In this document: positions 33,421 to 59,601 of the stretch, piece after piece
Position numbering within the stretch: the first letter of the stretch is position 1
Layout: every line of letters begins with the position of its first letter
Assembly (NCBI GenBank): GCA_030704615.1
Contig: CM060732.1
Coordinates: 59,768,001 to 59,832,000 of the forward strand
Direction of reading: 5' to 3'
Source of the DNA: Takakia lepidozioides
Taxonomy: Eukaryota; Plantae; Bryophyta
Length of the DNA stretch: 64,000 nucleotides
Made by a program: the position numbers and the translations under genes
The notes under the pieces: generated by a model
Database searches by the model: none
Seen by the model: only the letters and a program-made list of their open reading frames with translations
Told to the model about the DNA's origin: nothing

Positions 33421-34739
33421 AGCTACAAGAAACCTACGTAGATGGTCAATTTCTTGTTGCGGTAGTGCTTAGCAACATCGTGCTTGAAGAATGAAGTATA
33501 TTTTGGGAATATATATAGGCAGACTAGTTGAAACACCATTTGAGTGTCTGATGTATTAACATCCAATATCGTTCGAAGGTGCAATGTCCTCTGAGGTTGT
33601 GTTGTGGTGTTTCTATGGATGACATGTTTGATTGTAGTTACGTCTTTCATGTTGTATCATGTTGTTGTTTCTGCCAGTCTATGCAACAGGGTTGGTGGTA
33701 GAATACTTTGCCACTCTTTGCAACTACCAACAGGGTTGGGGGTCGATTCGTTGGTCATTGAAAGATTAATGCATGTTCTCTTTCCCTGCATAGGGGTTGT
33801 GTCTTGGTATAGATGGCCTTTCCTCTTTGCCAATTGTTGTGCTTATGAGAGCTCCACAAAGTTAAATTTCATTTTAATTTAATTTAATTTAATATCTAAA
33901 TTAGTCATTTAAAATTAAATAACATTTAATAAATTGCAAAATCTACATGATCAACACGTGTCCGTCACACATGCTCCAACGAGACCACGTGCCATCTGTA
34001 TTGTTGTAGTGATATAGTCATACCCATAGTCGTGTAGTCATAAAGATATGACTACTCCACTGCACCATCAGGTGATGATTACATATGTCAATGCCCAAGG
34101 ATCCCACGTGTCACGCAGAGGCCTCTCCATGTAGGCGCAACGTTGTAGTGATTTAGTCGTAACCTCAGTCATAACTTTCAGTTGTGTAGTTATATTTGTT
34201 AACCCTATTTTAACTAATTCTAGACTTTTGGCTTAAATCCGGACCAAACTTAATATGTATTTGAATTAAAATTAATTCAAAATTTGTTAATAATATCTTG
34301 GATAGTGTGATTGAACTTTGTGAAATTACAAGTGATGTCATACTTGCTTAAAAATGTAACATATAAGATGTCCATTTGACATTGAAGTGCTTGTGAAGTT
34401 GCAGTGTAACTCAACAATTCATTGAACGTCGACTGGGAAGTCAAATGATGTAATATTACATTATGTTACAATCACAATAAACAAATGTGTCGAATCCAAC
34501 ATGGGATAGACTCATAGTACTCTATCATACTTAATATAAGTTGATAGTAATTTTGATTGAATCTTCATGTTGACAAGCACAATATTCATAGACAATGCCA
34601 TTGGAATGATGTATTGGGTGTGAGAGGGGCAGTAAAATATTAAAATAGCGTGAACATTAGGAAGATGACCTACTAGGGCAGTAAAATAAGGTTTGGGGTG
34701 TAACTAGATATATTAAGTGCAATAAGGTCCAAGTTTGTG

Positions 34740-35860
34740 GTGATTCGGAGAAGGGTTTAGGGTTTTAAAGGGTTTAGGATAGAAAGAGAGAAACAAATAT
34801 GGACGACTCTAAACCGAATATAAAAATGTAAGGGGAATTTGATATCTATGTAATCATTCTATCATACGTTATCCAACTTGAAAATTAAAGAAAACATTAA
34901 GAGAATGATACAAATTTTACAAGAGGTAACATGGTAGTACAAGAAGGTTTGGAGTTTATTATTAGTAGGGTACTACACTAAGGTTTTTGGTATATGGTAA
35001 AAGTAATGGTTTAGGGTGCTAAGGGTCACGCTTAAGCTTGGGGTAAGAATTATTAAGGGAAGGGTAAGGGTTTAGGGTTTGGATTTAGGGTAGAAAGAGA
35101 CAAACAAATATGTAAGACTCACACATGGTAGTACAATAACTTGGTTTGGAGTGTAAGTAGGGTAGTACACTAACATGGTTTTTGGTATATTATGGTAAGA
35201 GTACTAATGGTTTAGGGTAGTAAGTGTCAGGCTTAAGCTTAGGGTAAGGATTAAGGCCAGGATAAAGGAATGGGTAAGGATTTAGGGTTTGGATTTAGGG
35301 TAGTTCAAAAGGACAAACAAATATAGAAGACTCACACATGGTAGTACAATAACTTGGTTTGGAGTGTAAGTAGGGTAATACACTAACCTGGTTTTTGGTA
35401 TATGGTAAGAGTACTAATGGTTTAGGGTAGTAAGTGTCAGGCTTAAGCTTAGGGTAAGGATTAAGGCCAGGGTAAAGGAATGGGTTAGGATTTAGGGTTT
35501 GGATTTAGGGTAGTTCAAAGGGACAAACAAATATAGAAGATTCACACATGGTAGTACAATAACTTGGTTTGGAGTGTAAGTAGGGTAGTACACTAACCTG
35601 GTTTTTGGTATATGATAAGAGTAATGGTTTAAGGTAGTAAGTGTCAGGCTTAATCTTAGGGTAAGGATTAAGGCCAGGGTAAGGGTTTAGGGTTTGGATT
35701 TATGGGAGTACACAAAGGTTTTTTGTATATGGTAAGAGTAATAGTTTAGGGTACTAAGTGTCCGGCTTAAGCCTATGGAAGGGTTAAGAGAAGGGTAAAA
35801 CGAAGGGTAAGGATTTAGAGATGATGGTAAAGGTATAAATGGACAAACAAATATAGAAGA
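34740..35860. repeat. ~210-bp tandem repeat rich in telomere-like TTTAGGG
   Basis: CAAACAAATAT anchors at ~35101, 35314 and 35524, with partial units flanking; each unit has several TTTAGGG/TTAGGG. Confidence 0.85.
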
Positions 35861-36363
35861 CTCGCACTCACTAGAGCGAGACATTGCAAAAAAACATTTA
35901 GACCGGATTGGAAAAGAAAGAATCCAGGGGTTGTGCCAACATTTTTTTTTGGGGTGCATTGTTTGTTTTGTAAGCCAGAATCCCCCATGTCACGAATATA
36001 TGTAGATGAACAGAATGTACAGCAGTGCAGAGTCCAACACAGCAGAAGGAAAATAGATGAACGTCCACTGCCCACTCGAGGTTCATTGCGACAGAAAAAG
36101 AAGACATGAAGGATCACCCAACGCAAACACGAAGGGAAAGAAGCGTAAAGAAAATTTTATATCTTAAAATAAAAGACCGGAAATAACCTCAACATTTAGT
36201 CCATGGATGGAAAATGGTTTGCAAGAAGGAAACCTTCAGGTATCTGGCTGAAGGTTAGCAACCTCCAAATTCGCGCGCGCCTTCACTGCTTCCACCGCTG
36301 TAATTCTCTTGGTGCTATTTCTTGTCATATTTTTTCGTGGCGGCATTGTCCACACGACATTGT

Positions 36364-39300
36364 TCACGTGGATCCATTGAGCAGGATCTGACGGGTTGTA
36401 CTCCCAAACTTTTGACCAACAGTCCCTGTAAAGTCTGAGGGGTTACCTCTTTTCTTCGGTCTCCACCACTTCACCTTCACCTTCTTAAAATTAGGATCTT
36501 CCCTTTCTCGGATGACATCTGAAATTGCCATTCCCATCCAGATCGGGCACGTCGTTGGGTCATGAGGGCGAACGAGCACAAAAAACCCTTTCTCAATATC
36601 CTTGAACGGATTCAAGGGTATCCTTGGACGCTCACACCTAGGGCCACAGTAAGGTTCTGGAACTTCATCCTCATCTTCTTCCAGTATCTGTGGCTGGATG
36701 TCATCCCTCCGATGGTTTGAAAACCAATTTGTTTTCGGCGAAAATCCCTCAAGAAGCTGAATACGATCCGGAATGTCCTGCATTGGCTTATCAAGTTCGG
36801 CGAGAATATTTCCCCAGTATTGGTTATATTGTTCCATTACACCCCGGTAATGATCGTCAAGCAACATTCATTTGGTCCAAAAATCTTTGTATTTCTTAAT
36901 ACCATTTTTTATGAATGACTGTTTTTCTGAGGAGTCGTCCCCGACTCCCCATATCGGTCTTCTTGGAACGACATCTGGGTCTCCTTCAGGGAGATATGGA
37001 GTCCCATCAGGATTGGACTTCCACATCGTAACGCTGGAGTTTGTAGGAAGCCACTCCGAATCCGTAGCTGCTTCTTGTACTTCATAACGGGCCAGCCATC
37101 CGCATCTTTAAAAAATCGAAAGATGTGCATCTCTGAGATCCCCACCAAAGCCTCCTTTCCATCATCAATACAACCCTTAACAAACTTCTTGAAGTCGGAA
37201 ATCTCCTGTATGATTTGAGGAATGAATTGCATATCTTGGGGGATCATGAATGACCTCATCAAATCCGGAAGAATGTAGGTGTTGCGTTCCTTTAGCTTCT
37301 TCGAGAGATAGCTAAAGAATCCGTCAATATCCTCATGGATGTGCCCGACCATGAGAAAACCAAGCTGGATCTCTTCAAAGACATTTTTGGCAGTGAGGAA
37401 GGATATGAAAGCAAGCATCCATCTGTTCTTATTGTCCTTGGAGGAGTTGTCCATCTGCAAATAAAGTCGTCTAGGAAGTGGTCGAGCACCACGTTTATCG
37501 TGCGGCCTGCAGGGTTTCACAGCCTTCAAACATCTCGATTTATCTCTCATGAGCGTTTCAAAAAAATCATTTTGAACTTCAGTGTCGAAAATGTTCATGG
37601 ATTCTCGGCATGTCGGCTTTTCCAATTGGCGCAGGCACCGAGCCAGCGACACAATTGTGAAGTTTGAATTGTCTTTCCAAAAAAAGGAAAATTGAGCGTA
37701 AGCTCCATCTCCGTGTCCGTGCGTAACCATTCCTGTCAATGAGACAGGCAACTGACCCAATCCGGAGACCATCTTGTTCGTCGTCTGTATCCTCGAAATA
37801 GCCGTTTTCCTATGATCCATCTTATCATGAATAATACATAGGAACTCCTCCGGAACCATAACAGACTCATTCCTCCAGCTATGGTACAGCCTTCTGCATG
37901 ACTCTTGATGCCTCAAGTGCAAATCAAGCGCCCGCTTATGTGCGACCTGTTCGGAACTTCTCTTAATCGACTTCTTGATCAAGTCCTTGAACATCTCGCA
38001 TTCTGTGCACTTAGCAAAGGTGCTTCCTGTTTTCCGAACCTCCACGTTAGGAAGTATTCGATTCCGTATACGGCTTATAGCTGGCTGCGAGACTCCTTTC
38101 AAACCGAGCAGTCTGTTTGTCTGCACCCCAATTCCCCAACAATGTCAACATCCACTGGGCAGTGGAGGTTCTACAAAGTGGAAGAACAAGAAAGCATGAT
38201 GGCATCAAAAAGAATAAAATCATTCACAGTATTTTGAAAAACGAAAGGGGACAACGAATAAAAGTCACCTCGTTGGACTCCTCTCGAATTCTCTTCCAGT
38301 TCATTTCGGGTGGCAAAATTCTCAAAGTATCCCGACGTCCCTCTCCAATGCAACATGTTTTGTGAGGCATAAGGTCAGTATTGGCATTGATAATGGACAT
38401 AATGCTCCCCTCTGCCTGGAGTGTCCCTGGTCGCGGCCGCTTGACGCCACGATTTCCGTGGAAAGATGACAAACAACCCTCTTTACTGAGCTTTTTGTAC
38501 TCCATGTACGTTGACCTTCCAATTCCGTGTATTATCCACCATGCTTTCTCGCAAACATCAACACCTTCTATCGTAATATACCACCTGCGCGATGACCCAT
38601 CCATAATGTGAAGTCGTTTTGAAACATTCAATCCAAGTTCTCTCTTCTCATCGAATGACGAACCCCAAAATGCAGTACGAATTGCCAAGGTTTTTCTCCA
38701 ATCAAAATACTGGCAGCACTGAAGCTTGCAGCAAGGTTTGCTGCTCACCGACCTCACTTCATCCAAAGTGAGATTTTTCTTGCACCTTTTTGAGTCCTCC
38801 ATATTGGATGGATTTTTCTTCCTAGTAAAATGCCTGTATGCTGCTTTCAATACGCTTGTACCATGGTCGTCATTCTCCATGTCACTGCATGGTCGTAGGA
38901 AATTTTCGAGATCAACGGAGAGTATCCGGCCATTTTCAAGAAGTCTTGTTTTTGTTAACGGCCATTTCACAATCGACATGAGTGAACCGGACTCTCTAGA
39001 GATTGTTCTGGTGACCAGAACCCCAACATCGTCCTCTCCGAGTTTGTCATTCAGAATGATCTCGTTAGGAATGCATGCTTGAATTCGGCCTTTGAACAGG
39101 GCGTTTCCGTCCTCCCCAAGAAGAAGACACTGCAAGTTTCTCCAACATTCTCTCCCCAGACCTGCAGGCAGATCCCCCCCAGTCTCACCATTGGACGGAA
39201 TATCATTGCTTTTAGTGCTTTGTCCTTGATAATCACTACCTTCTGTGATGGAATGACATCCTGGGTTTCTCGGGGATGATGAATCCATAGTTTCATGCGT

Positions 39301-39490
39301 GCGAACACATGACACGTCCCACACAACTGGAGTCCCAATCGCCTCCTTCAATGTATCAGCATCCATGTGTCGATAAGGCAGAGGACATGAGCCGAATGCG
39401 TCATCACAAAAGATCAGGGTAACTGAAATGGTGGACGAACACAAGTGGTGTCCGTGGCAAGTTCCATCCCCAGAAACATTCAGGCCAACC
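36364..39490 (-). pseudogene. Intron-containing DDE-like transposase (DUF7869/Sola-like), frameshifted at the C-terminus
   Basis: Cys-rich CCKLQCC and VCEKAW; phase-0 GT-AG intron 38268-38121; CTEC..H zinc-like motif; IIHDKMD, LYLQMDNSSKDNKN, FLMVGHIHEDIDGFFS as a putative acidic triad. Family assignment is from recalled motifs. Confidence 0.65.
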
Positions 39491-39820
39491 ACTAGGCTAC
39501 AACTAGTCAGTCACTAGGCTGCCACTATGCTGTCCACTATGGCAGTCACTAGTCCACACAATCGCCCCCCTAGCTGGTGCTTAGGTCCCTCTAAGTCCAG
39601 GTAGCCACAAGATGTGATAGTGACCATAGCCTCACTAAGTCCTCTACCACTATCCCTACTACACTCAAACTCGATAGATGAAGAGGCTGGGTGCAAGAGT
39701 TGCCCCATCGTTAGTCGCCATCTTGCAACCTGTGAACTTGAGCTTGGGATCTCATGTATTGACTCCTATGAGCTTGGCCTCCCATGTCTTGTTAGCTGCC
39801 TCCAGTCATGTCCACTGCCA

Positions 39821-39950
39821 CTATCCCAAGCAGTGTGGACACAACCAATCTCCGTCAGGAACCTTCTCAAGAGGTGGTGTCAAGCATCCCATATGCCAAC
39901 CCCTTGGGCATCGATCACACACTAGCATTGGCAGACCCACAGAGCATGCA
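39821..39950 (-). pseudogene. PHD finger (C4HC3) at the integrase C-terminus
   Basis: Hand translation: CMLCGS/(small deletion, frameshift)/MLVCDRCPRGWHMGCLTPPLEKVPDGDWLCPHCLG*. Confidence 0.9.
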
Positions 39951-40097
39951 CCTCAAACCTGCAGGTACCACTGCCAAGTTTGGGTCAACTCTGCCATCGA
40001 CATTGGGAAGGTGACATGGCGCACAATTACGCACATGGTCCTTCCAAGTCATGCTATCCCGACCCTCCAAGATCAGGACCCCTGAGGGCAACACCTC

Positions 40098-42790
40098 TCA
40101 AACCCTCAGAATAACACGCCCTGCAGTAATATCCAGAGTCGTAGGAGCAGTCTGCTGCAAATAAACATAGTCACCAGGGCTAAACCTCCGAACCCCAGGA
40201 CGATATCCTCCACCACGTATAGTGGCATACCTTAACGTATCACGGTGCTGTGCATTGGCAAGGTTCTCAAAAGCCATGGGCATGACATTCTTGAACAACT
40301 CTGCACGTTGATCACATGCACGTACCCACACGTCCGGATCATCAAGGTTAAGGACTTGAACAGTGTCCCTACGAATGGTTGTAGACAAATCCGACTCTCG
40401 GCCAAAGAGAAGGAAATATGGTGAGAAGGAGGCAAGTGATACTTGTTTGCTGAACCTCTAGCCCATGGCTAACCAAAGAACCTGAAGATCCCAATCTCCT
40501 AGGTGTCCCTTCTGCAAGCCATACTTGCGCAAACCCCTCTTCACCGTCTGAACAACTCTCTCTGCCAAGCCATCGGCCTCAGGATGATCCCGAGAAGTGG
40601 TGCGGTGGTCTATCAAGGCTTTATCACACAAAGCCTGAAACTCCCCCAAGAACTCTCTCCCTTGGTCCGTGAGTACCTCAGCTGGAGCACCAAATCGGCT
40701 AAGCACACGATCCAAGAATGCATACGCAGCCCCCTCACTAGCCTTGTCAAGCAATGGAACCAACTCAATCCACTTGGAGAAGTGCTCCACCATCACCAAC
40801 ACATATCTGTGGTGGCGCATAGTCAGTGGCAACGGTCCTGCGAAGTCAAGACTCCACCTGTAGCCCAATCCCATGATTGGTAAAAGATGCAACTGTGGTG
40901 TAGGGGCGTTGAATGAAGCACGCACCCTGTCACACACCATACACCTAGCCACGAACTGTTGCACCTCTGTATGCATACCACGCCACCAATACTGCCCCTG
41001 CAGTAAACTGTGAGTGCGTCGCACTCCAAAATGCCCCAACTCCTCATGGGCATGCCGCACTAACCGTGCACACTGTGTGGGGTGAGGCACAATCCTCACC
41101 CGACCATCCTCCCATACTCGAAGTAGGTGTATCCCCTCCCACTTAAACCTCTTGGCTCGTTGCAGGATCCGATCCCTCTCCCTGGTAGTCACAGTGGCTG
41201 CCGTGTCTCCCGTGCGGAGGTAGTCCAACACAGCCGAATCCTCATGTATATCTCTGGTACCACCTGGCTCATCACTAGCCTCAGGGTCCTCAGACACTCC
41301 GTCTACAGTCATCCCTGTTGTAGGTCCAACCTGACCTCCCGATGCCAAGATACACAAAAATGCAGATGCGTGCCATCCCGACACCATCTCCTTGTCCGTC
41401 TCACCATGCCACCGAGCTCCAGTGTCATCCTGCTGGCTCGTGCATGGATTGCGACTCAATCCATCCGCATCCCGATTGACCAAACCCGGTCGATGCACAA
41501 CCTGAAAGTCAAATTCCTTGAGTATGAGTGCCCATCGTGCAAGCTTCCCCGTAAGCTTGTCTGACTCCATCAACCACTTGAGTGGCTGGTGATCCGTGAC
41601 AAGGGTGAAAAGATTGCCGTATAGATAGCACCTGAAGTGTGCCACGGCCCACACTGCAGCTAAGCACTCTCCCTCATATGAGCTGTATTTAGCCTCTGCA
41701 GCGTTGTTCGAGCGGCTAGCATAAGCCACTACGAACTCTCTTCCCTCATCATCCACCTGTGTGAGCACCGCTCCAAGCCCCAGCATGCTCTAATCCGTAT
41801 GCAGCTGAAAAGGACGCCCCCTGATAGGTCGTCTCAGGATAGGCGCCGAGGTCAACCTCGCCTTGAGCTCTTGAAAAGCTCTTTCCTGCTCATCTTCCCA
41901 CTGTCACTCCTGGTCCACCTTGGTCAGCTTGGTTATAGCCTTTGCAATGGTACTAAATCCCTTGACAAACCGTCTATAATAGTTTGCCAACCCCATGAAA
42001 GCTCAAACTCGGCTCACATCCGTGGGGCGTGGAATTTGTGCAATGGCCTCTACCTTAGTCTGTTGTACCCCCAATCCTCCAGGGTATATCATGTGACCCA
42101 GATACTCAATCTGGTTGTGGAAAAACTTGCACTTCCCCGGATGCAACTTCAATCCGTGCGCTCTCAAGCGCTCCAATACCACCTGAAGGTGTATCTCATG
42201 CTCCTCCACCGTAACACTAAAGATGATGATGTCATCTATGTAGCACCGAGCAAAGTCTACCCCTGCTAGAATCCTATCCATGACTATCTGAAACTCTGCA
42301 GGAGCATTCTTAAGCCCAAATGGTAAGAACCGCCACTGATATAGGCAATCATTGCCGTGATCATTGATCCCCCAAAATGTCGTCTTCTGCTTGTCCGCCT
42401 CCTTGATTGGCAACTGGTGATATCCGGATCATAAATCCAAAGTGCTAAAGACCTTAGCATGCCCGATGGCATCAAAGATCTCCTCTGGTGTTGGCATGGC
42501 ATACTTATCAGACTTGGTCTGACGATTTATAGGCCGGTAATCACCGCACATACGTCTCTCCGTCCAATTGCCATAGACATCCTTCTTGGCTGGCATCACT
42601 GTGGCTGAAGCATACTCTCCACCAGAGAGCTCCACCAAACCTGCGTCCCAGAGATCTTGAGTCCTCATCTGAATCAAAAACCTCTCCATGTCACTGTATC
42701 TATAGGGTCTCCGAAAGATTGGCGTGTCAGTGGCCAACTCAATACGGATCTCTTGACCCTTCAGTGCTCCCAAGTCCTTCAAACTGAAGG
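40098..42790 (-). pseudogene. Gypsy RT, RNase H and integrase
   Basis: RMCGDYRPIN, FSTLDL*SGYHQ, LPFGLKNAP, CYIDD (RT); VAYASRS, ECLAAVWAV, TDHQPL, DADGLSR (RNase H); HEELGHFG..CMVC, WSLDFAGP, VLTDQGREF, ADGLAER (integrase). Confidence 0.95.
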
Positions 42791-43239
42791 CAAAGCAATT
42801 CCTGTAAGCCCTCAGGAACCGCCATATACGTCGTCTCTCTCCTCCGGTGACAATGGGTCCAATGTCAGGCTCCCAATTGTCCTCCGTAACTGCAACCTTA
42901 AGTCCAGTGGGCTTAGAGGTAGAGGACGCGTCCAGTGGTTGCTATGTTGCAACCTCTTGAGCAGTACTCCCTACCTGCTCAGTCAGTGACAAGGCCTCAT
43001 CCTGCCCCATCATCTCATCCTTAAGGACTTCCTCCACCCGAGAAAAATCCCCAACCTCATCTATCACCGCCACCTTTGGCTGCCAACTCCCTCTGAACCT
43101 CGAGCACCTCCCATGTGTGCCATGGATGCCTGCACCCCGTGGTCCTCACATGCTCGCCGCCACTGACTGCCTGTACCGTCTCGGTAGGCAGAGAGACCAT
43201 CAAGGGAAGTGTACTCCGCACTCTGCGTTGCTCAGCCAT

Positions 43240-44200
43240 AGCCAAGCTGATAATCCAGGTCAAGGAATTGAGATCCATTGCTTGCCCCAACACCTGACGA
43301 CATGATGCCTCAGAAAGAGATGACACCGCCGTGGTACCAGTGGTAAAACCCATTGCCCGCTCACGCTCGTCAGCATTAGGCTCCACTAACTGCTGCAACT
43401 GAGCATCCCACAGGAGGCCAGGTCCACTATCCCGGAAAGCATGCGATCCTGGGAAGCTGAGCAGTGTAGGTAATGCTGCTCGTGGTTGACCCACCTTGTT
43501 GACCACTGCCAAAGGCGAATGGTCATCATGTCTCACACGCTGAGACTGCCTCCCTGTGTCCAGAATGCTATCCACTGTGAGATGTGCTGGCCGCTGCACC
43601 CCATCAAATGCACGCTTGAGCAGTGCGGGTGGCATCAAGTTAGTCCACCATAGCTGTGGACGATGAGCCCGTGACCCCACTGTAGCTGCATCTAGCAACA
43701 CTGCTGACCCAAGCCACGACCGGACTTGATGCACACTGGCCATCACCCTGGCCCGAGAATCGCCCATCAGTGGCACATTCTCCAGGATGTATGCTGGAGA
43801 TACAGCTTGATGAAGCTGCAAGTGGCGCAAAACCCGCACCATCTCCCAAAACAGACCCGACCTCGAGTCTCGCAATCCATTGCCATGCTCGGCTGATGAA
43901 TGCCCTTGGCAGGGCCAACCTGCCACTACCAGATCAATGGAGCCAACCCGCTCCAAATCCTACGCTCCCAGCAACGAAATGTTTGCTGGCAAGGCCTGCT
44001 GATATCCACGAATTGCAGACACCGGCAACAAATCAGGGTACCGCTACACCAACTAAGCAACATGACGAAGTGAAATGCGTCATGTAGTCTCATCCCTCTC
44101 CACATACAGGTAACGCCGAACTCGTACACCTGCCTGTAACACAGCAGCCAATCCGGTGCTGATCCCGCCAAACAAGTCCAGAAGACAAATGCCTTCATCC
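43240..44200 (-). pseudogene. C5-cytosine DNA methyltransferase domain (DNMT3-like) inside gypsy pol
   Basis: One frame carries motif I LLDLFGGI (44161-44184), II YLYVERD, IV DLVVAGWPCQGHS (PCQ 43906-43914), VI YILENV (43774-43782), VIII AHRPQLWWTN, IX ERERAMGF and X LGQAMD; nonsense codons at 44080, 44053, 44044 and 43960. Confidence 0.93.
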
Positions 44201-44399
44201 GGATACTACCACACAATAGATGTGGTGTCCAATGGAGACAACTGAGGTGGTCCTGGTGCAATCCCCGCACTCTCCTCCTCTCCTGACGGTACAAAAGCCT
44301 CCACCCAGGCTTGTTGCACCCGTCGATCAGCATCCCGCTGCAAATCCTTGCTCGTGCCCACAATGGAGTCTGAGCAACCATGGTAGGCAACTCCGCCAT

Positions 44400-45226: not shown

Positions 45227-45899
45227 CCGGTCATGAACATGTCCTTAACCCCCTCTCCACAAGGTAACCGGGTAGAGAACCTGTTGCGGCTTATGGTTTG
45301 GAATACTAAGTTCCTAACATAGCCTACACCTGTACCTGCATCCACCGCAAACACTCCTATGGTTGGCTGGTCATCACCTCCAACCTCACCACAGGAGAAA
45401 CAATGATGGTCTAGCTGGTCATCACCCCAGCCTCACCATCGACAGCATGCTCTAGGACTGGCCGGTGATCAAATCCGGACCAATCACTTATAAAAACAAG
45501 CGCCCACACAAAACTAGCATGGTGCACAGTCAAGCATGCAGGTATGGAGGGGATCCAAACACAAGAAATCAGAACGACAACTCCCCCACACCAAAAACAA
45601 CTCCACGGTGTTGCTCCTGCAAGGACACCCCAGCCCAAACCCGGACTGACTCTTGCCTCCACCTACGGAAAAGTCTTGGCCTAATGAGAGGGTGGAAACT
45701 ACGAGGAAGAGAAGCTAAAGCATTGCCTAACCCCAGCATGCCCTCATCCCAATACTCTTCCTCTCCTCTCTTCCCTCACTTGCATGACCATGGGAATATC
45801 ATGAAGATACTCCTCAAACCGCCCTCCACGAGCTTCAAAATTCGGCCTTCAAGACCACATGCCAGTCCTTAGGCAGTCCACCAGTGCCTCCACGAGTCA

Positions 45900-47680: not shown

Positions 47681-50600
47681 ATCTTGGCTCCTTAGCTCCT
47701 TGATGCTCTCTAAGACAAGACTAAGCACTCCACAGCCCTTGCCAAGCTCCTGAAACCCTAAGGCTTACATTTCCAGCCACAAGACACTCCTCTTGTGGTG
47801 CAAGAGCTCTTCTTCCAAGCTCTGAAACCCTAGGTGCACATTCCATGGCCTTGCCGCACCTCTTAGCTCCTGTTCTAGCCCTGCTCTTGCCATGACAAGA
47901 GCCCTCTCAATGCTGAAGCTCAGAATTGAAACCCAATCTCAACATACTCCACAACGTGCACTGATTTGCCCCAAGCCAAATCAGCCCTTTCGCTTGGTCT
48001 TGCAATCCTGCAGCATGGTGCTTTCATCTCTGAAGCTGAAGATCGAATGCCAAGGTCTACCACCTCGTAACCCACATCGCCTCCGCTTCTAACAACCAAG
48101 AGCTCCATGGTGCTCCTTGCATAACAACCTAGTTTCTCTCATTCTCAAGCAAAAACCACAAGTGCTACAACTAACTCGTATTTGGCACTCACAGATACGA
48201 TCTCATCTTTCTCGAGTGATAAAAAAGAAGAATACAAGCACAAGCTCATGCGAGCTCACAAAGCTGAAGCATAAACTCATGCATATATAACCACTCAAAT
48301 ACAAGTCAAGCCAAGTGCACCCCACGCCATGGGGAATCCACACTACGGCGCCATAGCTAGGCGCGGTGAGGCTCAACTCGAGAAAGATGAGCCTCCCGCG
48401 CTTGCCGTGAAGATAACCACTCCAGGGCCTAAATCTGCCTTGACCCCTGGATTGACACTTGGGCCAATCCCAAATGTCAATATGTAAAAGCTAGTTTCAT
48501 ACTAGTGGTAGAATAACTTGACAGGATCTACACTGGGACTGATAAAAAACAATTGGAATTAAATTGGAGTATGAGGGCGGAATATAGACTACATCTATCG
48601 GAACTGTCAGATGAAGTCACAATTGCCAACCTCCACTGGGCAGTGGAGGTTGGATGATATCTGTTTGATGACATCAACCACATGGATGAACAATGGATAA
48701 TGAAGAAGCCCTCTGTAGATGAAAAAGTAATTATATGGATGGATGAATAATAATGTGGCTACTGCCCAGTGGAGGTTTGGGAGTAACTTTAGACAAACAA
48801 AAGCAAGTTTAGCTGGTGCACATGGAGAGTACACAAAAAATTGAGTATCATACTATCCTATGCGAGAAATGTGCAGTTGACACCTGAGACTAAGGAAGCA
48901 GGGAGAGACTCAGAGGCTGCTTCAGAAGTACCCTATGGGCAGAGTGGTGCAGGACATGCAAAGAGGTACACGTTGTCTAGAGAGGTGCAGGATGTTCAGA
49001 GAGGTGCGTGAGAGAAAAGAAGCAAGTGAGAGGTTCAAAGTGGGAAGTTGGTGTTGTGTGGATTCGGACGTTATCTAGAGGTGACATGTAACTTTCATCT
49101 TTGAATCGCTCCAATGGCAGTGTGGTATGCTTTCTCTCCCGGATCGATTGTGGCCACCGTGGATTAAGGCGGAATCGAACGGCTTATTTCAACTCGCGAA
49201 ATCTCGACTTCATTGAAAGTGTGCACAATTTTCCATTTATTGACAGTAGCCATTGTTACATTAATTATGGAACAAACGATAATGGCCGCGATCAGACTGA
49301 ATTCTATCGTACTTGTACGTTAGTAGGACTACAAGTCTAGCATCATTATCGTGCGGCTCTGATAGCAGACTCTGGAATAAGCGTGAAGGATGTTGATTTT
49401 GACAAGTGGCTTGGAGAAATGAAGTCAGACGGATCACCACAACTAATTCGGGACTGCACATTAACAATCGATCATTATAATTAGTTGGGAGGAATCCGGA
49501 GGTGAACCATAAAGCACTTTGAGATTTTTCTGTTTATATTTATCGTGCTGTTACAGTGAATAAAACACTTGGGCAGGGCGGGGCATTACATGCCGGCGCA
49601 TTGCATTGGACAGCGAGGGCGGTGCATCACATGTGTGCGGAATGCTCTGTCGTGCCTTGCTTGCTTGCACATGTTTAATGTAGGGATGGACCCCTCGTGT
49701 CGGGTATCCCTCGATAAATGGGCAGTCCCTATGGTGGCTCTGGACCTTAAATCGAGGAATGCCCGACACGAGGGGCCATCTACTATCCTTAAAGCCGTAT
49801 GTCTGTCAGGGAATATTGACGCCTGGCGACTAACAGCCGAAAGTAATTGTGGACAGCTCAATATGAGACAATGATTATACAGTGTGATGAATCTGTAGGT
49901 ACAGCGTTGTGTCCTCTGGCATATTGAGTTTGAAACGACTACCTAGGCGTGTCACGTGGGTGGTCACATGTGCGTTTGGGGCGTGGGTTAAGGTTTGTTG
50001 GCTTCGAATCTATTTTAAGATTTTTGTAAGCGTGAGGGTTGCAGAGTCTGACCAATGGCGTCATTACAATCATTTCGTCCTTTTTTCATTTGTCTATCCA
50101 GTCGTCTGTCCAAACGTGTGTGCATTCGTGGAACAAAAGTTGAACTAATTTCATCTGTGTGGATGAACAGTATTAATGTTAGTTTGCGTGGATGGGGCAG
50201 AACATCCATTTGGGCCGCGCTACCGTTCAATTTCGGACGGAGGTGATGGTTCAAATCATCCTTGAAGGTCGCTTATAAGGGGTGCGCTCTTTGAGCCCGG
50301 CCTTTGGGCTTCCCATTTTCTACGCGTAAGCGCTGCGCAAGTGAGAGCTTAATAGTTGAGAGAGGAGAGCGTGAAAGAGAAGAGTTTTGGAGCTCATTTT
50401 GCAGCAACTGGACACTGGAGCGTGGAGAGAAAGAGCAGACTTGGCCGAGTGCAGAGAGAGGAGAGGGTGAAAGGTGAGAGAGTGAAATAGGTGAAATTTG
50501 AAGAGCGGGGAGGAGAGACCGGACAATGGCGAGTGGAGATTGATGAGTGTAGAGGCGAGAGCACAGTGCAATTACCGGCAGGCGGAGGTGCGGAAGAGAG

Positions 50601-51646
50601 TATTAAACGAAGGATTGTGGTTGCAGGGGCACCAAAATGGCCGGCACAAGCAGGTACAACATTAAAAACTCCATCTTTTCGTCTTCTGTTTCATATTTTG
50701 TGTTGGCCCGCTCTCGATTCATGTGGCCTGTTCAAGATTCAATTCGTTTGGATCCTGCTTCATTCTCTGCTGCACTGCACTGTCTTCAGTGCTTCAGTCC
50801 GTGCTTTAGTGGACATTAGGTTTCTGTTTCATTGTTTGCTTCGTTGTTTGCTTCAATGCTGTTTCATTCTCTGACAATTCATTTCACTCCTGCTCCATTC
50901 TGTGCTTCAGTGCATTCCTGCGTCATTGCTTCACTGTTGTTTTTCAATTCACCGATGGTTTGTAGGGTGGTTTTGTGTGCAATTGGGTTTGTGTGTGCTT
51001 GTTTTGGTCGATTAGGGTAATGGTTTAGGGTGGCGGGAGATTACCGTGCTGGTTGTATTACTTGTTTTGTTCATTGTGGTGGTTTATTGAGGACAATGGT
51101 TTCGGAAATGCCCGGATGTTTATTTCTCAACCGTTTTCTTGATCCCCAAATCCAGCGTTAGTTGATGCATTTCTTCCCATTCAAATTCGATTCTGAATGG
51201 AAATTTTCATTTCTTATCCAATTATGTCGAATTCGGCAATTCTGAAAAACCACGATAGCCTAGTCTATTTGTATTCTACAGTAGACATATGCTAACAGTA
51301 AGCTTCGTGCAGGCTAGAGTAGAGTGTTCGTAGACCCATGTCATGCACATGAGCAACCAGAAACTGGAACCTCAACTGCCCAGTGGAGGTTCGCGTGAAT
51401 TCTGTATGCAGAAGCTGAAAGACATTTTTTTAAAGTAAGGACGAAATCGGATAATTACGGGAAAATTGAAATCAGTTTGAGACGATGTGGGAACGAGTGA
51501 TGGAATCATATGTGTAACATTGTAAGTGTGACACATACTTTCCAACGAGACTGGGATACGATAATTGGGAACCTCCACTACCCAGTGGAGGTTCGATATT
51601 TCTTTGGGTCAGCCAGTTACACACTCTGATTAGTTTTTATGTCAGA

Positions 51647-52300
51647 ATGAGAAAGAGGAACGAGGGTGGGGAACCAGTGTCTGACGATGAGTACAAGACA
51701 GCCAGATTAAATTGGAGCAAAAGACGGTGTTCGGTAGACGTGATGGAAGCGGACCGTCCAGATCAAAAACATGGTGTTTCGGAACCAGATGAAAAATCCA
51801 GTTGGGGGTCTACCGAGCCGAACAAAGTGTCTGTCAATGACGAAAATGTGACTGTAGAATCCCCGTGGAACGCATCCAAATCTCCGAACAATACATTTGA
51901 AGTCATCTGTAAGGATACCCTGGCGGAAATAAGAGAAAGCGTTCATGTAAACAATGATATCAACGGATCTCTTGCCTACTCCCAAGATTATCCGACATAC
52001 ACCCCTTCAGACTATTCCCCAAACACATTGGCGGCGATACGAGTGACCATTTTTGGATATCCAGCATCTCCGGGTTACTCGCCAGCATCTCCTGAATCCA
52101 TATCAGGATCTGAAGGATATTATCCTCCAAACTTCCTCCTGGACACTGAAACGAGCGGGGGAGTCCTGGAACTACTGGATGTCTCCGGATCTCTAGGATA
52201 CTCCCCTGCGTCTCCTAATAATATCACCGGATCCCCAAAATATACCCCTCCAGACTATTCGCCTGATACACTCAGAGAGATAAGAAGGAGCATTCTGTAG
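51647..52300 (+). CDS. Hypothetical protein with YSP/YTP repeats resembling the RNA Pol II CTD heptad
   Basis: YTPSDYSP, GYPASPGYSPASP, GYSPASP, YTPPDYSP; splice acceptor TTTTATGTCAG directly upstream. Confidence 0.5.
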   Translation: MRKRNEGGEPVSDDEYKTARLNWSKRRCSVDVMEADRPDQKHGVSEPDEKSSWGSTEPNKVSVNDENVTVESPWNASKSPNNTFEVICKDTLAEIRESVHVNNDINGSLAYSQDYPTYTPSDYSPNTLAAIRVTIFGYPASPGYSPASPESISGSEGYYPPNFLLDTETSGGVLELLDVSGSLGYSPASPNNITGSPKYTPPDYSPDTLREIRRSIL

Positions 52301-52622
52301 TTCTTGGGTATATAATCTAGAATCGTCTGAATATAGTGCGAGAAGTTCCTTAGTATATTTTGGACGAATTAGGTTCGAAGATTTCTATTGTAGATTAGTC
52401 CTGTTTCAGGATGATGTACTCAATGGCTCCTGAGCCTCATTTTCATTAAAGTTTTTTTCTTCAACATCTGTAAAATATGGAGGATTTCCCATTTCATGTA
52501 GAAAGACTCGTATATACGAACCTCCAATGTCCAGTGGAGGTTCTCATTTCTGGAATGATGGATGCTAGTAAGAGAGATCCTGTTATTTGATTATCTAATG
52601 AATTTGTGTTTGGTTGTAACAG

Positions 52623-53043
52623 AAGACATCCTACACCACAAGATTGTGTCCCGGGATTGATTGGAGTTAGTCTTCACATTTCAAAACTGAGCATACCGCT
52701 ATTTTTGAGCTTAACCCAGAGGGAAAACCCGATGTTGGTTTTGTTCCTGCATGAGGATGCGAGAACCCCCAGGACGTTTGGTTTTAAAGTGGAGGTGGGT
52801 CGTCTGAACAAGTCGTTGATGAGTGAATGCGTTGTATTGGGTTTTAGATTTCCAGACGAGGGCTCAGTATTTACAGACGTAGGTTTGTCGAGGGCCTGGA
52901 GTATTTTTCTGGATCTTCTGCACGCAATGGGGAACAACATTCGCAAGAAGCGAGCACTACAGGAAGCATCAAAGCCAAAGAAGGGAAAACGCAAGTCGTC
53001 GACAGCCGGCAATGATGACAATGAGGCCGGGACTTCCGCATGA
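52623..53043 (+). CDS. Hypothetical protein exon ending in a basic NLS-like tail
   Basis: Open frame after the acceptor GTAACAG; RKKR and KPKKGKRK. Confidence 0.4.
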
Positions 53044-53076
53044 AAGAAGAAACAGAAGGAGGATCAGGATCCAGCA

Positions 53077-55190
53077 TTGATGTCAGATAACAAGAGACCT
53101 AAAGCTGGGGAGATTTTTTACAAGGAAAAATGCAAGAAGATGGAGGAGAGGCTTACAAAGGAATACAATGATGTATTTCCATTCGGATTCGAGAGTACCT
53201 TCCTTGTGAAGGTTTCCATGATGGAACTAGCTCCAAGGAGCATGGTTTACAAGCCGTTAAATATCAAGCATAAGGACGAAGTGAAAGCGCGACTCTTCCA
53301 ACTTCATTTGTTCGACTCCAAACATCCGGTGTATCTTGCGCCAATCAACCTTTCCAATCCCGAGAAGATTGCTTCATCACGACCGAAGCAATGGAAGGAG
53401 ATGGACGTATCAAGGTTCTTCGTAATTGGTGGACAACACACCATCGTGGCATCAAAGGTAATGGACTTCATTTCCTCCCAGACCTCTCTTTTAACGAACC
53501 TCCACTGGGCAATGGAGGTTGGTGTTGAACTACAAAATTGGATATGTCCCCACACTTTCAACTCTCTCACCCATTTTACATTAACTGTAGCAGGAACTTC
53601 TCGAGGATCTTGCCGACAGCAAACTGAAGGAGTACTACCGGGAGTGGCCTACGAAAATTGTATGGTCTACCGATGAACAAAGGCTCCTGAAGTTGTCAAA
53701 GCTCCTCAACGATCCCAATAAGGCGCAAAAGTTTGATACAACAATGTCGGAGAAAGTTGCGCATGCACGAATGTTATTCAACCTGAGGGGGAAGCCAAAG
53801 AAATACAACGATCACACCACCAAGTCCGAGACGAAACAATGGAAGGTATGCATTTATGGAATCAAAATCTACTATTCACATTCATTTTATGCTAAAGAAT
53901 ACTTCTGTTGTCGGAGTGACAACTAATTTATCCCTGAATGAATGTGCAGGAGTCATTTGATACTAGAAATGGGTAGCATTGAGGAGGCAATGGTCCTGGT
54001 ACTTTGCGACGACAACGTTTGGAAAATCTGGGAAGATGTTTTCAAAAACTGGGAGCAGGGAAAGCTACTTGACCCGCTCGGGATACAGTACAAGGGTGAA
54101 CATCAACAACTCACGAAATCTGCTATCGCAAAGCTGTAAGGGTTGAACAGATGACAACTGATAAAAATTGCGTAGAAAATCCTGGACCTGAAATTGACCA
54201 TTCGAGATTACAAGGTCAAGACAAATCAATTCAAGGCATGAACAAGTACATAGACGACATGAAAATGCGCCGGTTTATTGTCGACGATGTGATGGAAGTG
54301 TTGGGGTGGCCTCGGAGGAGCAAACAGTGCATGGAACCATACACTAAGGACAAGGGGCGTGAAGTGAAGAGAAAGTACCACTTCAATAAGGCAAAGTTCT
54401 CAACATTTAAAGACAAACTGGGGACAGATTACATCCAAAGCAAGATCAAGATGAACATGGAGACAAAACCACTCACGGCCGCTTTTTGTTAAGTACGTCT
54501 CCTCCATCAAGAAAGCTTATGAGGATAGAGAGGATGCCATGGCGATTATTTCAGCGAGTTTCAAGATTCATTACGCTATCATGGGTGGAGAAACAAAATT
54601 CGTTGATGCCAAGTCCCGTCTGCGACTCGCACCGAAGAAACGGTTTGACAACATAGCGATGGTGTTCATCAATACAGTTTCTGAAGACAACTCTATCGTA
54701 TTTGAGTCCAACGATTATGTGAACATACTGGAGGCCTTTGTGGCTCAGAAAATGAACACGAGTGCTTTTGTTTTCTTCTCGACGCAACCGTCCTCGGCCA
54801 ATTTGGTCTCCTACATCCAAAATGGTCTCGGAAGAACATCGTATCTTGTCCGCCAAGGATTTTATGTTCCGGGAGAGTATGAAAATATTTACAAAAACAG
54901 CACGAAGACTTTCTCTCGGACTGTACTGTGCCTAGACTATGTTTTTAGAGCGACACCTGAAGAGATGCAGAATCCGGACGAGCACATCTCCACCGTACTG
55001 TTAAATCGAGCCAATACAGCCGATTCTGGAAGGGCCCTCTGAAAAGCCATCAGCTTTTGAAGAAGAGTGCAGGACTTATAATCATGAGCTACGAGCTGAT
55101 ACATTTGACTATTTGGCCTCCCTGTTTTGTCGAGACGGGATGTCCGCTGTCAACATCTTCGGAGGCGTGATGTTGACGTACGCCCTTCAT
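53077..55190 (+). pseudogene. Multi-exon protein with a ParB/Srx-like N-terminus and a degenerate amino-methyltransferase-like C-terminus
   Basis: YKPLNIKH..FFVIGGQHTIVA; GT-AG introns 53458-53593 and 53846-53949; after a frameshift near 55020, ELRADTFDYLASLFCRDGMSAVNIFGG; internal stops. Confidence 0.5.
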
Positions 55191-56884
55191 GTAAGTGTAA
55201 AGCCACATTGATGACTAAAGTCCAGATATAGAGCGTGTTGATTAATTACGTTTAAGCGACGGGTGGTTCTTGAGAAAGCTCGTGCGAGGATTATAGAGTT
55301 TATGGGGAAGAGAGAAATGAAAACGGAGAGAAGTGGTCACAGTACTTTGAAGAGTTTTCTGATGAGGATTGGAATGAGATGTTTGTTGGAGAAGAGGAGA
55401 TTTACACGACAGTGAAGCGTCTCTTGAAGAGAGGATCACTTGATTCCAATCAATATATCCATGATATCGAGGCTGTGAATATTGCAGCAACATCATGGCC
55501 CCGATGTGGCAACTGACCAAGAAGCCTGGTACTGGCTTTTTAAGTATGTGTTTAGGATACCAATAAACAACAGCCAGTACCAGCAGCATTATCTCATCAT
55601 CATTGGTATCTGGATGATTTGTTCCCTTGATCGTAAAGGATTTCGGGACAGATGCGACATGTAAGTAGTATTCTTGTTTTTGGATTGACAATCTTTGAAC
55701 AATACTGTCGAGATATGTTGAGGTGGGATGGTAACTAAATCACAGGTACACTCAAAGCCGAAATCCTACTCCAAAAGTGATCCGCTCGAGATAATGAAGA
55801 AGAGAACGAGGGGAGCATATCAAGAGGACACTACTCAGCATAGCCAACCTGAGAAGCTACAGAAAGTACTTTAGGGCTTAAAGTTCAATGGAGAGCTAGC
55901 TACAGAAAGTACTTAAGGACTTAAAGTTCAGTGGAGCTCGGTATGGCTCCAAATTTGTATCACCAAACTTATGTTTATAAAACAAGTTACAGATTCATAG
56001 AACAAACGTTGGTGCACTGTTTGCAGGCGGGTTTCAAGTTGTAATGGATTCAAGGATTGCCTCAACAAGGTCCGTTAAACTTTATGAGCATTAGCTTTTG
56101 AGTTCCATCTGCTGTCTGCTTGTATGTGGGTGTGTTTGTGTCTCTCTCTTATGTGAGGTTTTGGTGATGCTTTGTCTTTGCTCTAGAGTTGTCAGAGAGA
56201 AGGATGTACTTGAAGAACCTGATGACTGAAGTGCGTTCGGTGCGTGTGTGCACCACAACCCTCACTGCCAGCTTTATTGCTCTTTGAAATCAACACTTCA
56301 GCAGTTGTAGCACGCAACAATACGTGGGCTGGTCGACTGCTTTGTCGGTAATGTCCATGGCCACCCCGTTGATCTAGATCTTCCAGTTTTTTCACATTTC
56401 TTGTTTCATGGTTTTTGTGTGATTGATCTGGCATTCTCATTCAAGAGAGTACATTCGGATTCGTCTCACCACCGGACCATTCTACCTCTTGTAATTCAGA
56501 GCAGGAAGAGTTCCACATGTTGTCCCCAAACATCTCAGCTAGTGGCCAAGATTCCCAATCATCCCCCAATTCATATTGACCCACCTTCCCTAGCAGCATT
56601 CTCAGTATCCACCACAAAGTCCCACATGTTGGGATCCCCAAAAGCGATCGGATTAGCCCGAGAATCCTCAACATGGTCAACATCATATTCAAGTTCATCC
56701 AAATCAACAAGCAACAAAGCGTGGAGGATACGGTGGGGACACCAAGCGTCCCAAAAAAGGATATGAGCTAGTTTTCTCTGGCATTCAGAATGTCCCAGCA
56801 GACATCAACAATGGCATTTTTAAATACGAATTTTACATTTTTGATCGAACACGTCCTCTGTTTTACCGACTGGGTTTATCTGCA

Positions 56885-57646
56885 GGCAAGAAACATTCGA
56901 GTGCTTGACATCAACCACTCAACCAAGAAAAAGTTTTGCAAAAGAAAAGTTGAAGCGAATTTTAAGAAGCTTCAAATTGAGAATGACAATGTTGCTGAAG
57001 AGGTTGACGACGGAGACGAGGATGAGGAGGAGGAAGATGAAGACTTGGAAGAAGGAGGCGGACATTCCGAACACGTAGAAGAGGACGAGGGCATCGATGG
57101 TAACGGGGACAACGAAGGCCACGATAGTGACAATGCAGATTGTTGGGAGGCTGGACACCTAGATGTAATTCAGGACTTCAGAACTCAGTCACAGGATGGT
57201 ATTGAGAACATCACCCAAGACGTTGCGATCCACAATGTCGTGATTCTGGATGGGGTTCGTCGAGTTCAAGCGAGAGAACTAAGAGTAATCATGCTTCACC
57301 ATCAAGGGGTGCGGAGGCGAGCTCAATCGAGGTGCGCGGCAATTTTATTGGGAGTTCAGATGACTGGTTCAAACCTGTAGAAGGGGACGAGCCGGCGTCA
57401 ATGTCCCCGTCTCCCGCGAAAGAGAGGGTAGAGAGAGCGAGGACAAAGAGCCCGTGTCCCACAAAAGACAGCGGACACAGAGGGAGGACTAAGAGCCCGT
57501 CCCCCGCAAAAATGGACAGTGGTGACAGAGCCAGGACTAAAAGCCCGTCTCCAACAAAAAACAGCGGAGGCAGAGGCCGAACTCAGAGCCCAACTCGCTC
57601 TCAAAGTGTCTCCCAGCATGTCAATTTGGATGTAGGTAACGAATGA
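56885..57646 (+). CDS. Acidic, then RxKSPSP-repeat, low-complexity exon(s)
   Basis: Poly-D/E tract followed by RARTKSPCP, RGRTKSPSP, RARTKSPSP repeats; frameshift between the two parts. Confidence 0.4.
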
Positions 57647-58138
57647 CACCTGGAGATTTATGGTGTCTTTAAGCATTATAAATGGAACAAATTGTGTGTA
57701 TTGCATCTGGTTGTGTTTTTGGCAATACCTGATCTGTATCTTAATATTTCCCACCTTCTTGAAATTTGTATGTGACTGACGGTAAGAAAACTCATATAGA
57801 TCCATGAACGGAAATTGGAGGAAATCACACAAACCCGGACAGAATCCATCGCGACTCAAACAGTGAGGAGGCAGGTGGACTTAACGATAAGGGCCAGCCC
57901 AACTGATCTGGTCAAACAAACAACCTCCACCGCCCAGTTGACGTTGTGAGATGGAGGAGATGAGCCGGAGATGGTCGTTGCTCACCGCGAAGGAAAAGAG
58001 AGCGAGCAACAACATCAGCAAATTCGGAACCCCTCCCCGAAACGGGTATACACCTCATAACCATCTTAGCTATGTTCTTCTTTGTCCTTCTTCTAGTTTT
58101 CAAAATTAATTAATTGTTCTGTTATTCCACAGGATGAT

Positions 58139-58873
58139 ATGATTCACCCTCCAATCGACTATCACAAATCTGTGAACCCACAGGATTGGTATTGCCTCTC
58201 TGAGGGACCGAAAGGATCTCGACCAGGATACTACGTCCTGGTTCTTGACGTCGGTTACCTTGGTGAGGTTTACATCCAAGATGGCCCGAGATCCCCTCCC
58301 GCAACCCATCCTTGTGTGTGCGCTGGAAAATTCAAGCTTGCAGTCCGAAATGGGTTGGACGACTTCCTGAAATGGGTCCTTAAGCATTTTGAGGTCTGCT
58401 TTTGGAACACTGGACCATTAGAAAATGTCCTGGATATAGGGCTGGCTTTGTTTGGAAGAAGGTTTTACAAGGTCGGGGAATTCAGCAATGAGAACTGCGT
58501 GAAGCATAGACAGACGTTCAGTGCCGAATGGCCCAAATATCCGAAAGCGCCAATATATCTTAAACGTCTCTACGACCTTTTCACTGTAGACGACCCTGTA
58601 GCGTACAAATCAAACACACTTCTTATCGACACTGTAGAAAATATGTTTTAGGCATACTTGAACCCAAAGTTGCTCGGTATCTTCCTTCCAAAATATAAAG
58701 CGCTCGTCGACCCATACAATGACAGGTTTCTGCTTGATGAACTCAAACCGCACCTGGAAGAGTTGCGGTTATCCGGAAAAGACGCTGATATATTCAACGT
58801 GGAAAAACCCATAGGATGTCCACCGTATAATGACCCAAAGGTCAAATGCCTCTTGCTATGGGATTTGCAGTGA
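58139..58873 (+). pseudogene. FCP1/NIF-like HAD phosphatase homologue 1 (degenerate)
   Basis: VLVLDV..VRNGLDDFLKWVLKHFEVCFWN..YLKRL..NTLLID; in-frame stop at ~58649. Confidence 0.7.
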
Positions 58874-59049
58874 CAGGTTTATCTTAGAAAACAAAAATTT
58901 CTTGACGCTTCATTCGAACAGTTTGAAACGTAGATGGTTGCTCTAGATTTTCATGAACCTCGACTGTCCAGTGGACGTTGCTCCCAATGTCAATCCTGTC
59001 CTTGGTTTATCTTGATTACCACCTGAGTGGATGTATGAATTTCTCACAG

Positions 59050-59601
59050 ATTGCAGCACCAGTTTCTCCAGTTGCGAAAGGATTGCGCTTGATAATTTTT
59101 GACCTGAATGGAGTTTTGTGCAAAGTCTTGAAGTACCAGAAGAGCTATAGTGTCCCCCAAATGTCCGAGACAGACTACAAGATACCAGCTCTTGTTGGAT
59201 TTCGACTTGTCTATCGGCGGGAAAAATATCGTGAGATGTGGACAGAGTTGAACAAACATTTCCGTCTAGATATATGGAGCTGCATGATGTACAAGAACTT
59301 GCAGCCTATCCTGGACTTTATGCTTTGGGGTCTTCCTCAGCCGACATTCGTTATGTCTCAGAAAGATTGTATCTCCTATCCTACTTCTGTCCACCCTCAA
59401 TTTATATCAGGATACGACCTGGCGAGTCTGTTCTTGAAGCCATTGATGACAGTCTGGCAAAGATTTGGTGGTCAGTATAACCTGAGTAACACTCTACTTA
59501 TTGACGATTCAGCTATTAAGTGTGTGTTGAACCCGCCTGAATCCTGTCTGATTCTAAAATCGTTTGAATCCGTTGAGACGGACTCTTGTTATCTCCAGAA
59601 G
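59050..59601 (+). pseudogene. FCP1/NIF-like HAD phosphatase homologue 2, truncated by an LTR insertion
   Basis: LIIFDLNGVL, FRLDIWSCM, FLKPLMTVW, NTLLIDDSAIKCVLNP. Confidence 0.8.

Follow-up and report, generated by a model that had tools for sequence, protein, structure and literature searches.

A probable Sola-type DNA transposon of about 16 kb with an accessory gene unit and a family-specific palindrome in Takakia lepidozioides

The stretch analyzed here (the window) comprises 64,000 nucleotides of the moss Takakia lepidozioides (assembly GCA_030704615.1, contig CM060732.1, positions 59,768,001 to 59,832,000 of the forward strand). The DNA from 34,201 to beyond 59,600 is probably one inactivated copy of a DNA transposon that moves by cut-and-paste, is present in many copies and measures about 16 kb. 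The transposon, likely a member of the Sola superfamily, carries a divergent accessory unit and a family-specific palindrome, the likely binding site of a protein. An earlier note on this DNA had described a divergent layout, and this was confirmed: a transposase gene lies on the - strand at 36.25-39.48 kb (Pfam DUF7869, E 1.5e-41) and a set of accessory (cargo) genes on the + strand at 51.6-59.6 kb. Contigs from four public runs were compared with the window, and 80 related metagenome loci were collected, which reduce to 53 distinct ones when sequences 97% identical across 70% of the shorter member are merged.

The left terminus of the element, a terminal inverted repeat (TIR) that begins with AAC, was located at 34,201-34,226 (+ strand) from contig junctions, a depth step and alignment with the termini of relatives. 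Two contigs of run X5 match the window rightward of 34,201 and carry sequences unlike it to the left, and the summed depth in run X1 climbs about tenfold at this position, from ~2,500 to 26,000. The end aligns with 11 ends of related loci. In the relatives the terminal motif closes the shared sequence ~1-2.5 kb downstream of the transposase, with unrelated flanks beyond, and a motif matching the window's left end was present downstream of the transposase in 27 of the 53 distinct loci. No second family terminus was found within the window, even allowing 6 mismatches; a gypsy element breaks into the transposon at 59,601, and the right terminus lies beyond the window. The visible element amounts to 16,350 bp without an inserted retroelement and to 14,734 bp when a copy-specific insert is also removed. 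Since the far terminus of relatives lies 1.1-1.7 kb past the last NIF (phosphatase-like) domain, a full length of ~16 kb is likely.

The earlier note had suggested a possible start at the CACTA-like end at 28,610, which would make this a giant CACTA-derived element. The CACTA end at that position and its subterminal repeats are real, the remainder of the interrupted copia element is not in the window, and the N-terminus of one relative's transposase shows a faint Transposase_23 match (E 0.043). This extension is nevertheless largely refuted, and we give it very little credence: the sequence to the left of 34,201 differs in other copies, depth shifts tenfold at this point, the terminal motif also closes the relatives, whose flanks vary, and no copy of the palindrome occurs across 28.6-34.2 kb. 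Position 28,610 belongs instead to a separate CACTA-like element.

The note's proposal that transposase and cargo form one element of ~16 kb has held up. The two sides share the palindrome, and both are multi-copy. Run X1 gave 10,310 contigs on the cargo stretch, with summed depths (no measure of copy number, and with cargo and transposase called at different likeness cut-offs) of 3,500-9,900 over the cargo and 4,600-7,000 over the 5′ part of the transposase; these are far above the depth of 84-94 on the copy-specific insert, from which we conclude that both parts are multi-copy. A complete relative (L005, 1,221-12,493) spans 11,273 bp between 26-bp TIRs (25/26 identical), with ATAT on both sides, and the window's left end aligns with its TIR. 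Four NIF domains lie inside these TIRs, on the strand opposite the transposase, as do all 20 palindrome cores of the locus. A second locus (L050) keeps the order of the window on the divergent strand, with a ParB-like stretch (E 2e-21), two further homologous stretches, an acidic/Ser-rich stretch and NIF; the two further stretches were recovered though they were not seeds, and no TIR was found between cargo and transposase. Reversed-sequence controls gave 0-1 matches per profile. The cargo set and its order are common to families whose proteins are only ~20-35% identical.

The palindrome, which the earlier note had reported from both sides of the retroelement, was recovered as nine 26-bp copies confined to the element (at most 3 mismatches; none in 100 shuffles). 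In a profile scan the nine full sites scored 34-43, the next best site 12.6 and the best of 20 shuffles 8.1. Two copies lie on the transposase side, at 36,059-36,084 downstream of the gene and at 38,146-38,171 in the putative transposase intron. The other seven lie across the retroelement at 48,627-48,652 (the best copy, with a half-site at 48,767), 51,367-51,392, 51,569-51,594, 52,518-52,543, 53,496-53,521 (in the first predicted intron of the ParB-like gene), 57,921-57,946 (the weakest copy, in a predicted exon) and 58,955-58,980 (between the NIF domains). No full palindrome was found in the window outside 36-59 kb; a half-site lies near the terminus (34,424-34,435, + strand, profile score 17.1). 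By a splice model read from the sequence, eight of the nine copies are non-coding, in putative introns or intergenic DNA.

The relatives have an 18-bp palindrome of their own, with 124 matches in 36 of the 53 loci and none in 5 shuffles. Around 25 termini, 50 palindrome cores were counted in 73.6 kb inside the elements vs 2 in 65.6 kb outside. These palindromes form arrays spaced ~113 bp near the terminus and also occur in the transposase intron in at least six loci. Their outer arms (A-Y-Y-T) resemble the ACCT of the window and the inner part is unlike it; among themselves they differ chiefly by C/T and G/A, which looks as if it came from methylation. Palindromes are present even in two short elements, L016 and the inner one of L018, whose far TIR lies beside the transposase. 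An origin of the palindromes as footprints of miniature inverted-repeat transposable elements was rejected, as they follow the family and end at its termini.

The transposase has 92 homologues (27-63% identity; a named relative is Riccia), and the window from 39,477 to 36,251 aligns in four pieces to residues 26-1073 of a 1074-aa relative. Exon 1 (38,270-39,477, - strand) encodes the N-terminal domains and a Cys-rich region (E 7e-32 to residues 26-404 of the relative P0173); the retroelement has cut it near the start of the gene, at about residue 25. A putative phase-0 intron, with splice sites read from the sequence, follows at 38,111-38,269. Exon 2 (36,251-38,110, - strand), mapped from DUF7869, the 92 homologues and the exon map, is frameshifted and holds one stop; it encodes a Cys pair, a helix, the catalytic core (IIHDKMD, LQMDNSSKDNKN, GHIHEDIDGFF) and a C-terminal domain. 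Conserved Asp residues were found in HDKMD (D110, 30/30), LQxDN (29/30) and HEDID (D272 and D274, 28/30), and these would supply the catalytic trio. The AlphaFold model of the transposase was poor (pLDDT 44.5). Pfam matched DUF7869 alone, with no TnpD-type transposase domain, and PDB sequence searches with the transposase and ParB-like profiles gave no match. We found no paper naming DUF7869 in the literature searched; this orphan domain is now tied to actual elements with TIRs and a target site duplication (TSD). Intact, intronless DUF7869 transposases of 1,070 aa were also seen in L022 (1,929-5,138) and P0173, with an upstream palindrome of another kind.

According to the earlier note the element fits no standard plant superfamily, a view that our results do not bear out. 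On our reading of the sequence features it likely belongs to Sola, which its family resembles in TIRs, AT-rich 4-bp TSD and transposase motifs. Sola elements are described as having a DDD transposase, a 4-bp TSD and TIRs of 11-1124 bp, mostly with lengths of 2-9 kb and some >15 kb, and are recorded in P. patens (PMC10741241); a Physcomitrella Sola1 is listed (PMC9033089), and an AWWT target is given as the hallmark of Sola1 (PMC3845634). The 26-bp TIR pair and the 4-bp, AT-rich duplication (ATAT, in one independent locus) of L005 agree with this description, as do the moss host and a size of up to or over 15 kb. By eye, the Sola2 sequences in the supplement of PMC3627910 share with our transposase the Cys pair, helix, strand-D, D-N/G and H-x5-D-x2-F. 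The element differs in its AAC termini and in its spliced transposase, which has ~1,000 aa and additional domains at both the N- and the C-terminus. It also differs in the ParB-like/NIF cargo and dispersed palindromes, which go unmentioned in the portions of the Sola accounts covered (the original Sola description lies outside this coverage).

Other affiliations were rejected. CACTA/CMC elements end in CACTA with a 3-bp TSD and have a TnpD-type domain, whereas the termini here begin with AAC and the TSD is 4 bp. The element's left end in the window reads TTAACCC, which recalls the obligate TTAA target of piggyBac; flanks differ among 22 related ends, however, and conservation sets in at AAC. 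An endogenous virus was rejected as well: viral contigs contained no transposase relative or palindrome, and no PHROG match fell below E 0.02.

Several observations weigh against the interpretation of this DNA as one Sola-type unit. The 53 loci are not all independent, some having flanks in common, and run X1 is possibly the same sample as the window. The right terminus and TSD of the window copy fall outside the window, the flank beside its left end reads AACA, and both ends with a TSD were seen in one locus only (plus two duplicates). Strict AWWT flanks were found at 4 of 22 single ends, and the placement in Sola was made by termini, TSD and motif layout. The earlier note had asked whether transposase and cargo occur independently, and in part they do, the transposase often being found without detectable cargo. 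Cargo was detected in 4 of the 53 loci, or in 3 of the 26 that have at least 5 kb upstream. Many loci are decayed, so that missed cargo is expected; the cargo is nonetheless clearly optional. The far TIR of L016 and of the inner L018 element lies near the transposase, so these elements are without cargo. Moreover, L018 and L026 have a TIR between cargo and the matched transposase and thus represent nested family DNA, not one element.

Transposase and cargo could instead belong to two independent mobile elements that adjoin here. No single contig joins them in the window's organism, and the depth near the terminus (9,000-27,000) exceeds that of the cargo; higher terminal depth, however, is expected from shorter derivatives. 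Given that the palindrome occurs on either side, that the window has no further terminus and that L005 and L050 are laid out as described, we consider two separate units improbable and retain the single transposon.

Family termini that are nested or adjoining were seen in L018 (314 and 7,019), L026 (6,905) and L045 (12,844 and 17,524), which suggests that members of the family frequently integrate within or next to one another.

The cargo had been described as concerned with chromatin and transcription. This is a hypothesis: the NIF domains are confirmed, a ParB-like domain is likely, and the methyltransferase (MTase) and C-terminal domain (CTD) roles are conjectural. The CTD-like open reading frame (ORF; 51,647-52,300, + strand) contains a few YSPxSP-like heptads, with a Pfam match to the Rpb1 repeat at E 0.076 only, and no homologue of it was found in the 80 related loci. 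It is followed by a multi-exon gene (52,623-55,190, + strand), supported by ESM and homologues, which contains stops and frameshifts and comprises an N-terminal region, the likely ParB-like domain (53,044-53,458, FFVIGGQHT), a helical region and an alpha/beta region, the MTase-like part of the earlier note.

The earlier note had called this gene ParB/MTase-like; the first half of the name is likely right, and the second is a resemblance. Judged by its sequence, the domain is likely ParB-like: ESM features matched DUF6551 at 0.93 and a ParB_N cluster at 0.90 (11% of members; recognition 2475), a region with a GGQH motif is common to 12 homologues, and matches to a ParB-like hidden Markov model were obtained in L050 and L026. 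A PHROG ParB-like match (E 0.062) fell on the exon after the domain. There was no Pfam match and no PDB sequence match, and a search by word index found no longer ParB homologues. The AlphaFold model was poor (pLDDT 53.8) and gave no meaningful fold match with Foldseek and VIA-align (best Z 3.2), a result that does not speak against a ParB fold. The MTase-like region was matched by neither Pfam, PHROGs nor ESM and has no recognisable catalytic motif; it contains a stretch that resembles an S-adenosylmethionine motif without FxGxG. A profile of 11 Sphagnum-type proteins from this position, taken as homologous from their placement and a pairwise E of 4e-4, did not match the window stretch. The cargo stretch of a related locus has Sphagnum as its named relative; by themselves, this and the Riccia relative of the transposase make a bryophyte host likely.

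Acidic and Ser/Pro-repeat exons (56,886-58,045, + strand) likely continue the same gene, and L050 has an acidic, Ser-rich stretch at a like place. Both NIF-like domains of the earlier note match PF03031, though without the second catalytic Asp. The first, a NIF/FCP1-like HAD domain (58,133-58,872, + strand; LVLDVG), has one internal stop and falls just under the Pfam cut-off (E ~3e-4 to 4e-4). The second (59,050-59,600, + strand; IFDLNGV) is above it (E ~5e-8 to 6e-8), shows a weak UBLCP1 match (E 0.025) and is truncated by the gypsy element at 59,601, where the depth steps at 59.6 kb. PF03031 is above the cut-off in L005 too. The catalytic motif DxDx(T/V) is missing throughout, being replaced by DVG and DLNGV in the window and by DSKGV, NVNGV, DLKGV and DLNGI in relatives. 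Since all NIF copies lack DxDxT, they are likely binding modules. DLNG also occurs in a NIF subfamily of host proteins. The splice phases, at sites read from the sequence, permit the ParB-like, acidic, Ser/Pro and first NIF exons to form one long gene, and the run of + strand genes may thus be two or three genes.

Two of the public runs, which we guess to be RNA, gave coverage only on the copy-specific insert, part of the first NIF domain and the retroelement ends. At 58,527-58,767 their contigs match the first NIF domain (~89% alike) at high depth and then diverge; these could possibly come from a gene related to the cargo NIF that is expressed or has been domesticated.

In the mechanism that we propose, the DDD transposase would bind the ends, with the palindromes assisting, excise the whole unit and insert it at AT-rich 4-bp targets. 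The palindromes occur in cargo-less elements and cluster near the ends, which makes the transposase their likeliest binder, with about an even chance of being so; the ParB-like protein would be the next likeliest, as a weaker candidate. The cargo would be an optional accessory, likely acting on the element's own transcription or chromatin through binding modules rather than enzymes. Its retention between families of 20-35% identity speaks for a function in expressing the element itself, and the layout would suit a system that shields the element from host silencing.

We consider it possible, if somewhat unlikely, that the ParB-like cargo protein recognises the palindromes and would form, with the NIF and heptad modules, a sequence-specific anti-silencing or self-activation system. 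ParB proteins bind palindromic parS sites. The CpG observed/expected ratio is 0.77-0.79 in the element, whereas the host gene has 0.36 and the CACTA-like element 0.41, a CpG retention that would fit such a system; the right-hand gypsy, however, reaches 0.87 though it has no such cargo. The model for such a system is VANC, whose targets in the VANDAL elements of Arabidopsis, a group of Mutator-like elements (MULEs), are described as short family-specific motifs that occupy non-coding sequence within introns, between genes and at the termini, frequently as tandem arrays (PMC5735166). The palindromes likewise lie mostly in putative introns or intergenic DNA, differ between families and form tandem arrays in relatives. 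Large size and accessory genes are further points of likeness, and VANC would be the closest working model for the palindrome and cargo. The transposase, however, is of another superfamily, and the VANC motif is an 8-9-bp word in one orientation vs an 18-26-bp palindrome here, the comparison being one of motif distribution only. Palindromes were also found in 36 of the 53 loci vs ParB-like genes in 2, the cargo-less short elements bear them too, and their C/T and G/A variation has the look of methylation. A more elaborate picture is a little more doubtful: bryophyte Sola-type transposons with their own control, in which the ParB-like protein would read the family-specific palindrome dispersed over introns and ends, recruit catalytically altered CTD-phosphatase-like domains and a CTD-like decoy, and keep the element transcribed or unmethylated as an independent, ParB-based counterpart of VANC.

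The cargo could also be host gene material that was passively captured, as in Pack-type elements, and amplified without a role within a single unit. Detectable cargo is missing from most relatives, every NIF copy seen lacks DxDxT, and the window copy has also acquired a recent filler of 1.6 kb, the first part of which matches contigs of the two putative RNA runs. The same gene set and order, however, recur between families that are ~20-35% identical, NIF is expanded to four in L005, and random captures would seldom recur over such distances. We regard passive capture as unlikely and prefer a cargo with a function for the transposon.

Other large elements with extra genes are known. The Sola2-Fanzor chimeras of amoebozoa belong to Sola, are 12-13 kb long and carry a passenger gene; their TIRs measure 12-21 bp, and their TSD is AT-rich and 4 bp long (PMC3627910). 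The passenger in them is Fanzor, rather than ParB-like and NIF. Pack-MULEs and the enlarged En/Spm elements of Chondrus (16-20 kb, 4-5 ORFs) are likewise TIR elements with extra genes (PMC6431247), but they belong to other superfamilies, and Pack-MULE cargo consists of short random fragments. The likely ParB-type domain, standing ahead of what may be a methylase fold, recalls the eukaryotic ParB-fused adenine methylases (chlorophyte-type Dam, second family; PMC4738411), which that account, as far as covered, assigns to chlorophytes and chytrids. For the candidate fold in the window there is neither database support nor a recognisable catalytic motif. The literature searched gave no account of cargo in Sola elements, of NIF or ParB-like passenger genes or of these palindromes, although Repbase entries and supplements may contain one and the original Sola description was outside the coverage. 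An abundant moss transposon family keeps a conserved accessory gene set and a family-specific palindrome across lineages with proteins 20-55% identical. If the cargo binds the palindrome, this would be a second, independent anti-silencing system of plant transposons; if it does not, the work still yields a large, curated variant of Sola, of a sort that gene annotation mistakes for host genes.

The element also contains a subterminal 210-bp tandem array with TTTAGGG-like words (34,929-35,867), whose copy number differs between element copies according to contig joints. A predicted divergent promoter region with the first exon and intron of the + strand unit lies at 49,000-51,300, as judged from the sequence and a skew switch, and has multi-copy depth. 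A foldback hairpin (49,685-49,780; 25-bp arms, 92%) was observed within it.

The DNMT-gypsy insertion of the earlier note, a gypsy-type retroelement bearing a DNA methyltransferase (DNMT), was confirmed by Pfam (DNA_methylase, RVT_1, RNaseH and the integrase domain rve). It occupies 39,481-48,530 (- strand; borders approximate), interrupts the transposase gene and is not part of the transposon. The depth at its ends exceeds 300,000, and self-BLAST found no long terminal repeat pair. Dnmt3-gypsy elements with DIRS-like repeats have been reported from the alga Klebsormidium (PMC5890265), and a relative present at high copy in what is likely a land plant may be new to the literature. The insert peculiar to this copy (55,202-56,817, 1,616 bp) lies in a predicted intron; three contigs join 55,201 to 56,818, and the depth of 84-94 was measured over 55.5-56.3 kb. 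Its first 0.6-0.8 kb are 98% alike to contig ends of the two putative RNA runs, and Pfam found no match on its two ORFs. By its near single-copy depth and sequence it looks like captured host or filler DNA.

The CACTA-like element that served as insertion target (28,610-34,200) itself lies inside a copia reverse transcriptase. It is marked by seven ATGACTA words at 28,633-28,954, inverted TAGTCAT at 33,902-34,035 and lower depth at 33.7-34.1 kb, and the Sola-type element sits in its right subterminal region. It is non-coding, with internal repeats of 0.4-0.5 kb, and its right end is not in the window. The order of insertion at the locus would be copia, the CACTA-like element, the Sola-type element, and then the two gypsy elements and the 1.6-kb filler. 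Further to the left, a 270-bp inverted repeat (96%; 15,638-15,907 and 20,022-20,287) flanks copia pieces and a GMC-oxidoreductase fragment (18,310-18,738, Pfam E 2.5e-12). The sole clear host gene in the window, at 2,677-13,640, has RRM exons and a long charged N-terminus, and we take it to be U2AF65-like.

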